From positions 338 to 64,337 of the forward strand of contig JAOUGE010000005.1 of assembly GCA_029865605.1 (NCBI GenBank): a stretch of 64,000 bases of DNA, read 5' to 3'. Shown one piece after another: positions 6,467 to 34,790 of the stretch. The notes beneath the pieces were generated by a model that was not told the DNA's origin, did not search any database, and saw nothing but the letters and a program-made list of their open reading frames with translations. This stretch comes from Candidatus Berkelbacteria bacterium. GTDB taxonomy: Bacteria > Patescibacteriota > UBA1384 > DTJR01. The position numbers and the translations under genes were made by a program. Numbering within the stretch: position 1 is the first letter of the stretch; every line of letters starts with the position of its first letter.

Positions 6467-6609
6467 TGGTAGCGGGGGTGGGATTTGGTCACAAGTCGGC
6501 GCGCATATTTTTCTTAAAGAGTGTGCCGCTCGCGACCCCGCCTCATCCCGCCGTGGCGGGACTCCGGCCTTCAAATCCCATCGCTCCCAATTCTCGGCTT
6601 ACGCCGATC
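6467..6609 (-). repeat. tRNA-3'-flank structured element, copy A (variant without the AGCA loop)
   Basis: Minus strand reads: after the tRNA-fMet CCA, hairpin TCGGC-GTAA-GCCGA; antisense TGGGAGCGA-TGGGATTTGAA; GGCCGGAG; hairpin TCCCGC-CACG-GCGGGA; GAGGCGGGGTCG; long imperfect hairpin; GTGAC. It ends in an exact 21-nt repeat of tRNA C56-CCA (6467-6487 = 6610-6630). Confidence 0.8.
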
Positions 6610-6686
6610 TGGTAGCGGGGGTGGGATTTGAACCCACGACCTCGAGGTTATGAGCCTCGCGAGCTACCAGACTGCTCCACCCCGCG
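6610..6686 (-). tRNA. tRNA-fMet (initiator, anticodon CAU)
   Basis: CGCGGGGTGGAGCAG...GGCTCATAACC...GGTTCAAATCCCACCCCCGCTACCA. Very close to the canonical bacterial initiator, including the unpaired 1:72 position. CCA is encoded. Confidence 0.9.
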
Positions 6687-6812
6687 TTCTAGATGCTAGT
6701 ATAGCTTAATACTTAGTAACTTAAAAGTCAATCTCATAATCCTTTTATTTTAATTTGTGGCAAAGCCTTCATTCTGGTAATCTGGAATAAATTTGAGGTT
6801 AAAAGCCGATTA

Positions 6813-7412
6813 ATGTTTTTTATCCGCAATATTCAAAAAATAAGAAAATTCAGGCTAAATTCTAGGCTTAGTTTACTGCTTGGGTTCTTTTTGCTAGTAG
6901 TTTTAGCGAGCATCTTTTTTACCAAGGGCAAAACAGCTCCGGGCAGCTCTATGGCTTCTCCTACCCCAAGCGCTGAAGAATCAGTCCTCGACAAAAATTT
7001 TGCCCTAGAGGTTGAAAAGCTCTCAATCTCGGTACCAATAATTAAGGATGTCGACGGAAGCGATAAAGATAAGTACAACGAGGCTCTCAAAAAAGGATTG
7101 GCTCACTATAAAGGCACTGCCTTACCGGGCGAAAAAGGCAATATTTTCATTTTCGGTCACTCAAGCTCGGATGAGGTCGGGGATTACGGCAAGGTTTTTT
7201 CCCACCTTGATGATCTGGAAAAGGGCGACCTTATCAGGGTTTATTACAAGCTTGAACAGCACGATTATGAGGTTTTTGAAGAGAAGGTTGTTGAAGCAAC
7301 CGATTTGTACGTCCTTGACAGAGGAAATAAAGAAAAGCTGACTCTTATGACCTGTTGGCCGGTGGGAACGAAAGACAAAAGACTTGTCGTCATCGGCTAC
7401 CCTAAGAAATAA
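6813..7412 (+). CDS. Sortase family transpeptidase
   Basis: N-terminal TM anchor, conserved His (IFIFGHSS) and TLMTCWP catalytic Cys motif. Confidence 0.8.
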   Translation: MFFIRNIQKIRKFRLNSRLSLLLGFFLLVVLASIFFTKGKTAPGSSMASPTPSAEESVLDKNFALEVEKLSISVPIIKDVDGSDKDKYNEALKKGLAHYKGTALPGEKGNIFIFGHSSSDEVGDYGKVFSHLDDLEKGDLIRVYYKLEQHDYEVFEEKVVEATDLYVLDRGNKEKLTLMTCWPVGTKDKRLVVIGYPKK

Positions 7413-7464
7413 TTGGCTCATAGGATTGAAAAGATTTAAAAAAAGTGTAGAATATTTAGATGCT

Positions 7465-7541
7465 GGCAACGTAGCTCAGTTGGTTAGAGCGAGGGAATCA
7501 TAACCCCTAGGTCACAGGTTCGAATCCTGTCGTTGCCACCA
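7465..7541 (+). tRNA. tRNA with anticodon CAU (elongator Met or Ile2)
   Basis: GGCAACG/CGTTGCC acceptor stem, anticodon loop ATCATAA, T-arm ACAGG-TTCGAAT-CCTGT, encoded CCA. Confidence 0.85.
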
Positions 7542-7663
7542 GGTTGTTTTTTGGTGAAACGGCGGATTCGAAGGCCGCAGCGAGCGAAGGCGAGCGAGGC
7601 GGGGTCGATTGCCGCGCCAGCAGGTGCGGACAAGTGACCGAATCCTGTCGTTGCCACCAGGTT
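7542..7663 (+). repeat. tRNA-3'-flank structured element, copy B
   Basis: TGGTG-AAACGGC-GGATTCGAA is antisense of the CCA end and T-loop. This is followed by GGCCGCA, hairpin GCGAGC-GAAG-GCGAGC, GAGGCGGGGTCG, hairpin CCGCGCC-AGCA-GGTGCGG and GTGAC. It ends in a 25-nt exact repeat (7639-7663 = 7521-7545). Confidence 0.85.
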
Positions 7664-7727
7664 TTAAGTTAGGCCATGCCACCCCTTGCTTCGCAAGCCT
7701 ACTAGTTTTACGTTTTAAATTTTAAAT

Positions 7728-33031: not shown

Positions 33032-33058
33032 GCCAGCAGGCCGAGCGGACCTGAACTC

Positions 33059-33109
33059 AAGGGGGCCCTCACGGGCCCCCTTCGACGTTTGCGCCAAGGC
33101 GCTATTTTT
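33059..33109 (+). terminator. Tandem hairpins closing islet 4
   Basis: AAGGGGGCCC-TCAC-GGGCCCCCTT, then GCGCC-AA-GGCGC followed by TATTTTT. Confidence 0.7.
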
Positions 33110-33144
33110 GCTAGAATAAGACCTCAATCAAATTAAAAAAAGCG

Positions 33145-33624
33145 ATGCAAATTCAAAAGAACAAAGATGGGAATCTCGAGATAAAGTCTAAAAAAGCCAC
33201 CGTTGTGTTTGATGGAAAGGTTGTCGTAAATGATGTTGAGCTTGAAGGTGCGGGCGAATATGAAGTTGGAGAGATTGCAATCGAAGGGATTGACGACGAC
33301 ATTTATATTTTTCAAATCGAGGATGTTGTCTTGGGTTCGGTCAATTTCAAATCTAAGATTACTAAGGAAAATGTCGAAAGATTGGCCAACTGCGACGCGG
33401 TTTTAGTGCGGCTTGACGGCAAAGTTCATGAGGCGGTAGAGCAGGCCGGGCAAATTCAGCCGGACACCATAATTTATGCCGGGACTTCTCGATCGGCAAC
33501 AGAGCTTAAATCAAGCGGGGTTTCTTTTACAAAATCGGATTCGATTAAACTAAGCAAGGCGGATATTGGACAGGAAAAATCGTATTTCCTCGAACTAGCA
33601 GATGGTAATGGTCAAAACCTTTGA
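33145..33624 (+). CDS. Hypothetical protein
   Basis: 159-aa ORF with host-like composition. No motif recognised with confidence. Confidence 0.45.
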   Translation: MQIQKNKDGNLEIKSKKATVVFDGKVVVNDVELEGAGEYEVGEIAIEGIDDDIYIFQIEDVVLGSVNFKSKITKENVERLANCDAVLVRLDGKVHEAVEQAGQIQPDTIIYAGTSRSATELKSSGVSFTKSDSIKLSKADIGQEKSYFLELADGNGQNL

Positions 33625-34570
33625 GAAGATCCTAGCTGTTTTCGAAAAATCTGAGAGGGTTTTGATTCTGCTGCACCTTTATCCAGACGGAGATACTGTG
33701 GCGTCGTCCTTGGCTCTGGCGACTTTTCTGAAAAGGAGAGGCATACTTGCTGATTGCGCAGTTAGAGGGGAAATACCCAAGCCCTTTCATTTCTTGCCCG
33801 GCGTTGATTCTATCAGGCATGATTTTCTACTCGGCGATTATGATGTAGTCGTCGCTGTTGATTGTGGTGATGCCCAGCGCACCGGTTTTCCGGTCCGTCT
33901 TGAGCAGATTTGCAAATCAAGAACATTTATTAATATTGATCATCACAACAAAAATAACTTGCATAGAATTGCTAAGATAAATCTGGTTGACAAGGGGGCT
34001 TCTGCGGCAGCAGAAATTATCTGGGACTTTTTAAAATTTGCCGGAGCGGAAATTGACAGCAAGATGGCGACATATATTTTGTCGGGGATATATTTTGACA
34101 CGGGCGGATTTCAACACTCGAACGTTACGACAAGAACTCTTGAAGTGGCATCGGATTGCTTGCGCCTTGGGGCAAGAATTTCAGCGATAACGGCGAATAT
34201 AAATGGAACGAAAACTTCATCAGCATTGAAGCTTTGGGGAATGGCACTGAAGAGGATGAGAATAAGCAGAAGTGGTATAGCAAGTTCTATTTTAACCCAG
34301 GAGGACTTAAAGGTTTGCCGGGCGAAAGCTGAAGATGCTTCAGGAGTTGTTAATTTGATAAGCTCGGTGCCTCAAGCCAAGCTGGCAATCTTGTTCTTAG
34401 AGAATCCTGATGGTAAAATTAAAGCCAGCTTGCGGACTGATTCGGTCAAGGTTGATGTGGCTCAATTCGCTCGTCTTTTCGGCGGCGGAGGGCACAAAAA
34501 AGCAGCTGGGTTTACAATAGAAGGGAAGCTGGTTGAAAAAACCGGAAAGTGGGGGATAGCGGAGGGGTGA
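33602..34570 (+). CDS. nrnA: DHH/DHHA1 phosphoesterase (NrnA-like oligoribonuclease / pAp phosphatase)
   Basis: HLYPDGDTVASSLAL, NIDHHNKN, and GGGHKKAAGF motifs. Confidence 0.85.
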   Translation: MVMVKTFEKILAVFEKSERVLILLHLYPDGDTVASSLALATFLKRRGILADCAVRGEIPKPFHFLPGVDSIRHDFLLGDYDVVVAVDCGDAQRTGFPVRLEQICKSRTFINIDHHNKNNLHRIAKINLVDKGASAAAEIIWDFLKFAGAEIDSKMATYILSGIYFDTGGFQHSNVTTRTLEVASDCLRLGARISAITANINGTKTSSALKLWGMALKRMRISRSGIASSILTQEDLKVCRAKAEDASGVVNLISSVPQAKLAILFLENPDGKIKASLRTDSVKVDVAQFARLFGGGGHKKAAGFTIEGKLVEKTGKWGIAEG

Positions 34571-34577
34571 AGAATCT

Positions 34578-34663
34578 GGGCGAGTGGTGGAATGGTATAC
34601 ACGTTGGACTTAAAATCCAATGGTCGCAAGACCATGTGGGTTCGAATCCCACCTCGCCCACCA
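34578..34663 (+). tRNA. tRNA-Leu (UAA), class II
   Basis: GGGCGAG/CTCGCCC acceptor stem, anticodon loop CTTAAAA, variable arm, T-arm GTGGG-TTCGAAT-CCCAC, encoded CCA. Confidence 0.9.
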
Positions 34664-34790
34664 GGTTGTTTTTTGGTGAACAGGGGGGATTCGAAAGCCG
34701 GACCAGCCCAGGGCTGGGAGACGGGGTCGCACAAAAATTCAGCAGAATTTTATGAGTGACCGAATCCCACCTCGCCCACCAGGTTGTTTT
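34664..34790 (+). repeat. tRNA-3'-flank structured element, copy G
   Basis: TGGTG-AACAGGG-GGGATTCGAA (antisense), then AGCCGGA, hairpin CCAGCC-CAG-GGCTGG, GAGACGGGGTCG, hairpin AAAATTC-AGCA-GAATTTT and GTGAC. It ends in a 30-nt exact repeat (34761-34790 = 34643-34672). Confidence 0.85.

Follow-up and report, generated by a model that had tools for sequence, protein, structure and literature searches.

A structured module inserted at a fixed nucleotide of tRNA genes in Patescibacteria

A 64-kb stretch of a Candidatus Berkelbacteria metagenome contig (JAOUGE010000005.1; ENA ERZ27296335), here called the window, carries seven copies, A to G, of a short structured module attached to the 3' side of tRNA genes. 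Each copy follows an intact tRNA or, in one tandem case, another copy, and ends in a repeat of the 3' part of that same tRNA. The modules are insertions into tRNA genes, not only RNA genes. We hold with moderate confidence that the copies represent a non-autonomous integrative module specific to the tRNA genes of Patescibacteria.

ARAGORN and Rfam both place nine tRNA genes in the window, six of which bear modules; both CAU tRNAs are typed as Met by ARAGORN. A covariance model trained solely on copies from other genomes (R1) returned exactly seven matches with E<1e-4, all within units A–G: 6487–6563 (minus strand), 7573–7639, 23953–24019, 28443–28503, 29158–29220, 29339–29403 and 34696–34761. 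Their E values range from 3e-16 to 1.4e-5, and the next-best match has E=0.34. The pattern GGGTCG-N8-14-CAGCAG-N8-14-GTGACC occurs six times in the window, with 0.00 occurrences expected from shuffles. A search with nhmmer was weaker than the covariance model and recovered four of the seven copies. Together with a reading of the loci, the model matches and the pattern count bear out the original prediction, made from the letters of the window, of seven copies sharing one order of parts.

That order begins with the tRNA and its CCA end, followed by a hairpin X (with a T-run in C and D), an antisense of the CCA end (TGGTG or TGGAG), a diverged linker and an antisense of the T-loop that ends opposite T54. 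The segment (A/G)GNCG(G/C)A, hairpin 1, GAGNCGGGGTCG, hairpin 2 and GTGAC then lead into the repeat of the tRNA, which starts at C56. The exact direct repeat measures 21 nt in copies A, C, D and E, 25 nt in B and 30 nt in G; the exactness claimed for all seven copies fails in F, where a match of 6 nt is followed by a palindrome in a degenerate copy. The predicted AGCA loop of hairpin 2 is likewise missing from copy A, in which a longer apex replaces the CAGCAG loop, and copy D adds an extra hairpin to the shared anatomy and has GAGAA in front of GGGTCG. The window features are as follows.

6610–6686, minus strand: tRNA-Met(CAU), host of copy A; its last 21 nt (6610–6630) are direct repeat 1.
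6467–6609, minus strand: copy A; hairpin X at about 6585–6609, antisense arm at about 6564–6584, core 6487–6563 (variant with a long hairpin-2 apex), direct repeat 2 at 6467–6487 (21 nt); R1 32 bits, E=1.4e-5.
7465–7541, plus strand: tRNA(CAU), host of copy B; repeat 1 at 7521–7545.
7542–7663, plus strand: copy B; X GGTTGTTTTT at 7542–7551, antisense arm TGGTGAAACGGCGGATTCGAA at 7552–7572, core 7573–7639, repeat 2 at 7639–7663 (25 nt); R1 55 bits.
23826–23900, plus strand: tRNA-Gly(GCC), host of copy C; promoter-like site at 23788–23815, repeat 1 at 23880–23900.
23901–24039, plus strand: copy C; terminator-like hairpin X at 23901–23928, antisense arm 23929–23952, core 23953–24019, repeat 2 at 24019–24039 (21 nt), then a terminator-like hairpin at 24043–24063; R1 70.5 bits.
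27173–27258, plus strand: tRNA-Leu(CAG), an empty site; the identical tRNA is filled in the relative L130.
28283–28368, plus strand: tRNA-Leu(GAG), host of copy D; repeat 1 at 28348–28368.
28369–28523, plus strand: copy D; terminator-like hairpin X at 28369–28399, antisense arm 28400–28419, core 28420–28503 (duplicated 5' domain and extra hairpin), repeat 2 at 28503–28523 (21 nt); R1 46.5 bits.
29031–29106, plus strand: tRNA-Phe(GAA), host of the tandem copies E and F; repeat 1 at 29086–29106.
29107–29240, plus strand: copy E; X at 29107–29133, antisense arm 29134–29157, core 29158–29220, repeat 2 at 29220–29240 (21 nt); R1 77 bits.
29241–29443, plus strand: copy F, in tandem behind E; long spacer and antisense arm up to 29338, core 29339–29403, degenerate repeat 29403–29443 split by the perfect 20-nt palindrome CCTGCCTGCCGGCAGGCAGG (29409–29428); R1 62.5 bits.
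34578–34663, plus strand: tRNA-Leu(UAA), host of copy G; repeat 1 at 34643–34672.
34664–34790, plus strand: copy G; X GGTTGTTTTT at 34664–34673, antisense arm 34674–34695, core 34696–34761, repeat 2 at 34761–34790 (30 nt); R1 59 bits.

Related genomes differ in which tRNAs are occupied. Orthologous loci (loci of other genomes are given L numbers) were retrieved through the neighbouring NTP-transferase gene, whose protein in L130 is 85% identical to that of the window. The tRNA-Leu(CAG) gene is identical in the two genomes. In the window it is followed directly by its flank, while L130 has the tRNA, GGTAGTTTTT, an antisense arm, the core and an exact 21-nt repeat (C56–A76) before the same flank resumes. 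The original prediction had looked to relatives without the element for the insertion junction; in this pair of empty and filled sites the duplication is clean and 21 nt long. At tRNA-Leu(GAG), which bears copy D in the window, no such element is found in L168, L174 and L175; in L129 a serine recombinase gene directly follows the tRNA, and L133 retains a truncated remnant composed of X, the antisense and GGCCGCGA. L133 also carries a divergent variant at tRNA-Val, with an extra hairpin of loop GGUGGAA, an apex resembling that of copy A, and a repeat in which 21 nt are extended by a 45-nt trailer.

These loci hold further features. Just 3' of tRNA-Leu(CAG), window positions 27266–27319 look like a further tRNA 3' end with an insert in it (TTTCGAATCCGC ... 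GCTTGCCCACCA); this relic is also kept in L130 and may go back to an earlier event at the same tRNA. The close relatives L174 (1456–1530) and L175 (1618) differ by a 75-nt insert after tRNA-Leu(GAG), which has a degenerate tRNA 3' end at its own end and no core, and so represents a different sort of small insertion at tRNA ends. In L129 (960–1560) and L130 (4870–5470), a free-standing open reading frame (ORF) that resembles, by eye, a LAGLIDADG-type homing endonuclease (LLATDGYL, GHFDGDGS) lies between the NTP-transferase gene and tRNA-Leu(GAG). The window lacks it and has an AT-rich, repeat-like spacer in its place (28179–28282).

The family is far broader than the window and spreads through Patescibacteria. 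We scanned 185,579 species-representative genomes with CGGGGTCG-N9-11-CAGCAG-N9-11-GTGACC. Among the matches listed, at least about 84 have a complementary hairpin; nearly all of these belong to Patescibacteria (Paceibacterota/Parcubacteria groups, Saccharibacteria, Woesebacteria, Berkelbacteria, WWE3, WS2 and others), the remainder being chance matches in GC-rich genomes. With the covariance model and the pattern scan combined, the Patescibacteria loci examined contain 135 copies, often two to four per 8 kb. A tRNA on the same strand lies within 250 nt in 105 of the 135, an opposite-strand tRNA alone in only two, and the tRNAs involved represent 17 amino-acid specificities. Most copies are compact, with a median distance of 60 nt from tRNA to core. 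Tandem copies, as E–F in the window, also occur in L049, L088 and L119, and copy B shares 88% core identity with the L130 copy, which sits at a different tRNA. An origin in phages or plasmids was set aside: six pattern matches in viral contigs are chance occurrences without a tRNA, and blastn against phage and plasmid collections gave no match to the module.

Three arrangements of the module are distinguished. In the T-loop type, to which the window copies belong, the repeat starts at C56 in 48 of the 49 copies whose exact repeat is 15 nt or longer, while its 3' limit varies, giving lengths from 21 to about 66 nt. In the short type, the hairpin behind the tRNA is built from positions 70–73 plus the trailer, the insertion lies between 71 and 72, and only N72-A73-C74 and a few further bases are repeated after GTGAC. 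In the upstream type, the core, with an autonomous hairpin ahead of it, lies inside a tRNA 5' fragment (after position 10, 17, 24, 46 or 55), which sits just 5' of an intact copy of the same tRNA. The autonomous hairpin of upstream-type copies (L070, L028, L087, L092, L103, L105, L029, L012, L014) has a conserved 11-nt loop (GAAUACUUGGA and variants), and the L092 copy has flanks that pair into a 10-bp acceptor-like closing stem. Another small hairpin (CGAAA-GTGTACTCAC or GCGGTAATCCGC) recurs just after GTGACC, between the core and the tRNA 3' fragment, in L008, L054, L025, L024, L005, L018, L044 and L055, on contigs of Saccharibacteria, Paceibacterota, Nomurabacteria, Kaiserbacteria, Minisyncoccia and Parcubacteria. 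In L006 (3420–3510), a core copy with its 5' hairpin lies in frame and free of stops inside uvrC, between the conserved R-x-C and RPC motifs, and adds about 32 residues.

The core folds into a defined structure. Its 63-nt form comprises a 3-bp helix GNC/GN'C, an internal loop GGA/GA, hairpin 1, GG and hairpin 2, the latter with 16 bp, a bulged A and an AGCA loop closed by C-G. Covariation was assessed on 43 gap-free 63-nt cores, as a MAFFT alignment of all cores had misaligned hairpin 1; the invariance of GGGGTCG, CAGCAG and GTGACC in this set is built in by the scan pattern and reflects ascertainment bias. Paired cells make up 98.8% of the alignment, compared with 35–46% when the partners are slid, and both sides change at 14 of 23 pairs; none of 500 shuffles reached the observed values. 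The two hairpins thus keep their shape through compensatory stem changes, as had been predicted from the seven window copies, and the base bulged at the fixed position in hairpin 2 is A in 59 of 60 distinct hairpins. Not upheld is the description of GGCCGGA as a single-stranded motif. Its third base covaries with the fourth base of GAGGCGGGG (C:G, A:U and G:C); since it pairs with the fourth base of GAGNCGGGG, the segment is a helix strand. At one pair of hairpin 2, G:T is found 22 times and A:C never, and at the adjacent pair each occurs once. As G:T is tolerated with almost no A:C, the fold is assigned to the tRNA-sense strand, as RNA or single-stranded DNA.

The degree of conservation and of covariation in the core is too high for mere decay. 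For the module as a whole, which is a polymorphic tRNA insertion with a target-derived duplication, the original view of a selected structure rather than attachment-site scars does not stand; for the core, it does. It makes the core a strong candidate for a new family, of RNA or of single-stranded DNA, that would have a conserved protein partner. An optional extra hairpin is found between hairpin 1 and GGGTCG in the window (28443–28465), in L133 (5180–5215) and in L066, with the loop GGUGGAA (GGUGGCA in copy D). This hairpin and the long hairpin-2 apex of copy A and L133 point to a second subfamily, invisible to the exact-pattern scan.

As originally suspected, the module matches no named RNA family. 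Rfam 15 at the gathering threshold returned tRNA matches only from the window and 13 loci, and at E up to 10 over 28200–29600 no match was attributable to the module. The permissive matches on copies D and F, to the rnk leader and two microRNA models, are at chance level (E 0.67–6.8; 17–22 bits against cut-offs of 55–168). By-eye comparison of the core with the hammerhead, hepatitis delta virus (HDV)-like and twister ribozymes, the K-turn, the Ro-binding helix of Y RNA, the signal recognition particle RNA and box C/D RNA gave no fit; the bulge of the GGA/GA loop is 1 nt and not 3 nt, and the P1 strand required by an HDV-like fold is absent. Literature searches found no description of such tRNA T-loop modules, and the family appears to be undescribed.

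The antisense arm has a constant relation to the insertion site. In the T-loop and short types, its end (T54 or N70) lies exactly 2 nt 5' of the first repeated base (C56 or N72), which confirms the predicted end opposite T54. At this 2-nt offset, 74% of positions pair across all copies, compared with 25–45% at other offsets, and none of 500 shuffles is as high. In 27 copies the two repeats differ, and here the arm favours the tRNA's own 3' end in 22 and the downstream repeat in three. This preference indicates that the coherent unit is the tRNA 3' end, X and the antisense, while the downstream repeat drifts like a displaced fragment; a closing stem with the downstream repeat was accordingly dropped as the selected pairing in favour of the upstream tRNA end. 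Between tRNA and core, X takes the form of a hairpin followed by a T-run in 32 of 66 compact copies, which would end tRNA transcripts ahead of the core.

The integrative reading that we prefer starts from a unit of four parts. The first is a replacement tRNA segment, from C56 to the 3' end and sometimes with trailer and terminator; the second, a variable apex X, which can be as short as a few bases, can be a terminator-like hairpin or can hold kilobases of cargo; the third, an inverted copy of the same tRNA segment, reaching T54; and the fourth, the conserved core of 63–100 nt with three helices. The unit is placed between T55 and C56 (or between 71 and 72 in the short form), with the original 3' end displaced downstream as the 'exact repeat'. 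Since a unit entering at T55|C56 brings its own 3' end, the tRNA gene stays intact. The mobile form, we infer, would be the closed unit (3' end, X, antisense and core) folded as a single strand, in which the tRNA 3' segment and the antisense would form a stem imitating the target duplex, with X and the core at opposite ends. Integration would then occur by a single crossover within the tRNA 3' segment at T55|C56, through a putative trans-acting enzyme for which the strand-specific core with its bulged A may be the recognition module. A single crossover of this kind would account for a tRNA that remains intact next to an inverted copy of its end, for the direct contact of the core with C56, for the displacement of the repeat together with the original flank, for tandem arrays and for the space that X offers to cargo.

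The ORF scan of the window gave housekeeping or no Pfam matches, with no recombinase, transposase or reverse transcriptase; the copies are therefore non-autonomous. More tentatively, the core and the target-derived hairpin may be the cis part of an unrecognised integration mechanism, in which a gene-less unit folds single-stranded (as DNA or RNA) to give a stem modelled on its target, is inserted at a fixed T-loop nucleotide by a trans enzyme or by its own catalysis, and can re-template its arms on moving to a new tRNA.

Several points weigh against integration as the explanation. The closed single-stranded or circular form is one that we only infer. Conservation of the core sequence across the whole superphylum is unusual for a selfish repeat and fits a host function, and the window copies, only 56–76% identical to one another, speak against a recent burst. 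The upstream forms need extra assumptions. A large serine recombinase lies between tRNA and core in one locus only, and three independently sampled recombinase loci lack the core. The presence and absence at orthologous tRNAs could reflect loss through recombination between the repeats rather than gain. Finally, an RNA role for the module would be compatible with the minimum-energy fold predicted for a read-through transcript, in which the tRNA takes the downstream repeat as its 3' half, and a long hairpin and the two core hairpins project from the T-loop.

That fold, a coherent cloverleaf with the module in its T-loop, is among the arguments for the alternative that survives best, although we judge it unlikely overall: a non-coding RNA of tRNA operons that benefits the host. 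With the antisense/sense stem closing it, the core would be made by read-through transcription from the tRNA promoter and freed by tRNA processing enzymes, and would bind a protein or act in regulation, possibly as a switch of tRNA 3' maturation through pairing of the antisense with the tRNA end or with the decoy repeat. The RNA-like covariation with G:U on the tRNA-sense strand, the invariant loop and bulge nucleotides, the retention in many Patescibacteria lineages and the co-orientation with tRNAs would all be expected of such an RNA, and there are tRNA promoters upstream and terminators behind the repeat in C and D. However, the antisense arm tracks the tRNA's own end, a pairing that would unfold the tRNA, and a terminator-like hairpin precedes the core in half of the compact copies; these two features weaken the simple co-transcribed reading. 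The 'decoy' repeat decays, and gain and loss at orthologous tRNAs of close relatives, truncated remnants, the in-frame copy inside uvrC and kilobase cargo at the hairpin apex are likewise at odds with a host RNA.

Ranked next, and distinctly improbable, is an RNA-level mobile element, a ribozyme or retro-element whose antisense arm would be an internal guide across the insertion site, similar to P1 of group I or the exon-binding sequence (EBS) of group II introns. A tRNA transcript would become linked at C56 to the 3' end of the core, and the resulting chimera would undergo reverse transcription and recombination beside the gene. Such a route agrees with a guide that spans the junction at a fixed 2-nt offset in two target classes, with strand-specific folding, with junctions at single-stranded tRNA positions (D loop, 25/26, 46/47, 55/56 and 71/72), and with repeats that often end at RNA 3' ends, namely the mature CCA or the end of the terminator U-run. 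It is hard to reconcile with repeats that lack the terminal CCA in genomes whose tRNA genes lack CCA, and with a core far smaller than known splicing ribozymes and without a match to any ribozyme family. Furthermore, the scanned window ORFs include no reverse transcriptase, and group II introns are reported to be absent from Patescibacteria (PMC13011429). Group I introns are reported in the anticodon loop of Patescibacteria tRNAs (PMC13011429) and are distinct from the T-loop modules. No tRNA was found to need removal of the element. An obligatory T-loop intron was rejected on the same ground: removal in silico from 29 copies without a tRNA called within 200 nt upstream rebuilt a tRNA in only three, each of which is already present intact further upstream, so that no tRNA depends on excision.

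Some modules enclose genes. In four loci (L031, L119, L025 and L076), the block of antisense, core and repeat lies 2.4–3 kb downstream of the intact tRNA, so that the original caveat, that the segments might be the ends of larger integrated elements, holds for part of the family; most copies are compact. L031 has 2.35 kb of cargo between 58-nt repeats that span C56 to the end of the terminator, L119 has a radical SAM gene among three module copies, and L025 contains defence-like genes and a truncated recombinase. Between two core copies of L025 (2700–3950), ORFs resemble by eye TIR-like and SLATT/DUF4231-like membrane proteins, a possible defence islet. L076 is the sole locus with an intact large serine recombinase between tRNA and core; the protein, of 489 aa, is encoded on the opposite strand and its gene abuts the tRNA.

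This recombinase, with the domain set Resolvase, Recombinase and zinc ribbon, is 81% identical to that of L129 at the orthologue of the copy D site. Its family, large and highly conserved, has 7,833 matches in Patescibacteria, the best 120 of the 7,833 at 69% identity or above. Three loci sampled through the recombinase protein (L176–L178) have the tRNA palindrome and neither the core nor a long direct repeat, and the recombinase was thus rejected as an obligate partner of the core. In L176 and L178, near-perfect inverted repeats, about 99 nt long, border the gene, which lies between the tRNA 3' end and, beyond the far repeat, an antisense pseudo-3'-end, and occupies the apex position of X; the antisense is followed by a different conserved region, termed S, and not by the core. 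The recombinase unit is a second tenant of the same tRNA palindrome. Members of the family converge on and overlap tRNA 3' ends in L176 (7400–9700), L178 (7400–9600), L177, L076 (3119–4900), L129 (1572–3113) and L132 (1–650), and the last codons of the L076 gene (W-Y-T-R-stop) are the antisense of the tRNA end. In L177 the unit has the opposite orientation, which suggests an invertible or palindromic recombinase unit. The 2-nt offset of the module is compatible with the geometry of serine recombinases; this offset and the presence of the recombinase family in the same genomes are leads rather than proof. At the right junction C56 is preceded by AC, where a standard attR would have TT.

Weakest, and more doubtful still, is the proposal that the copies are ordinary attachment-site remains of integrase islands in tRNA T-loops, the small copies being islands with deleted cargo and the core no more than a conserved arm or terminator of the island's end. 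The classic signature of T-loop integration, reportedly set out by Williams in 2002, is a displaced 3' fragment with its start in the T-loop behind an intact tRNA; it speaks for the proposal, as do the four kilobase-sized loci and the large serine recombinase abutting the tRNA in L076 and at the copy D orthologue in L129. Against it, the same core and junction recur at 17 tRNA specificities, whereas one target would be required by a protein-only integrase, no tyrosine integrase is seen in the four cargo-bearing loci, independently sampled recombinase loci have neither core nor long direct repeats, compensatory change with invariant unpaired bases is the opposite of decay, and an inverted target copy is not a feature of integrase scars.

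The modules do not match in full any known system with which we compared them. With the islands and prophages that tyrosine integrases insert into T-loops they share an element-borne 3' end that rebuilds the tRNA, an original 3' fragment left as the distal direct repeat with its start in the T-loop (C56 in 48 of 49), and tandem accretion at the same tRNA. Unlike these islands, which are kilobases long and carry their integrase, the modules are mostly 120–200 nt and non-coding, have a median tRNA-to-core distance of 60 nt, occupy 17 specificities, contain an inverted target copy and a structured core, and have no linked integrase. Large serine recombinase units also target the tRNA 3' end and occupy the apex of the same palindrome, and the 2-nt offset of the module would be compatible with the cleavage stagger of these enzymes. 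In contrast to the modules, they have the S region where the modules have the core, are bordered by inverted repeats about 99 nt long and have no long direct repeats; their association with the core is occasional, with a recombinase between tRNA and core only in L076 (and a fragment in L025) and none in the window.

In CTXphi attP(+), which is used by XerCD, and in integron attC, inverted segments on one strand fold into the stem of the recombination site. The modules similarly have inverted half-sites on one strand, with an antisense arm that pairs and covaries with the tRNA 3' segment and could fold with it into a target-imitating stem; strand-specific mismatches, extrahelical bases and a regenerated target that allows tandem arrays are further likenesses. 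The module target, however, is the tRNA T-loop and not dif or attI, the stem is copied from each target, and the folded intermediate is one that we propose. The bulged A (59 of 60) recalls attC, whereas the GTTRRRY/RYYYAAC consensus and the context of a cassette ORF are absent.

MITE, REP, REPIN, Rickettsia palindromic elements and CIMEs (the cargo-less derivatives of integrative elements, flanked by attachment sites) are, like the modules, short, multi-copy, hairpin-forming, gene-less and dependent on functions in trans, and Rickettsia palindromic elements likewise include in-frame copies inside protein genes, as in uvrC. Unlike these small repeats, the modules are strictly associated with tRNAs at a fixed nucleotide, have target-derived arms and retain their core across a superphylum. 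Their inverted arms copy each target tRNA, and the duplication of 21–66 nt has only its 5' end fixed, which is not the case in a MITE; the GTAG or CGTC heads of REP and REPIN are not shown by the module sequence, although no search for a RAYT gene was made.

Finally, the group I P1 and its internal guide sequence, the pairing of EBS and intron-binding sequence in group II and the bridge RNA of IS110 also place a target-complementary segment that spans the insertion point beside a conserved scaffold. The modules differ from group I and II introns in being too small, without an intron core and without need of splicing, and in duplicating the target; no intron model matches them and, unlike in the case of group I, group II or archaeal-type tRNA introns, no tRNA depends on their removal. 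No IS110-type recombinase is linked to them. The modules are perhaps best seen as akin to small non-autonomous integrative repeats, with a mechanism that might, as a tentative suggestion, be categorically new.

Patescibacteria have tiny genomes in which few mobile elements are recognised, and yet two thirds of the tRNA genes in the window bear the module. Modules of this kind explain tRNA fragments and pseudo-tRNAs that confuse the annotation of Patescibacteria genomes. An element that always lands on one T-loop nucleotide and rebuilds its target would be a new model for selfish DNA beside essential single-copy genes. If the proposed mechanism is correct, it would represent a programmable, structure-guided and tRNA-specific insertion system across a bacterial superphylum, and should the arms serve as a guide or a folded attachment site, this system would be both compact and re-targetable.

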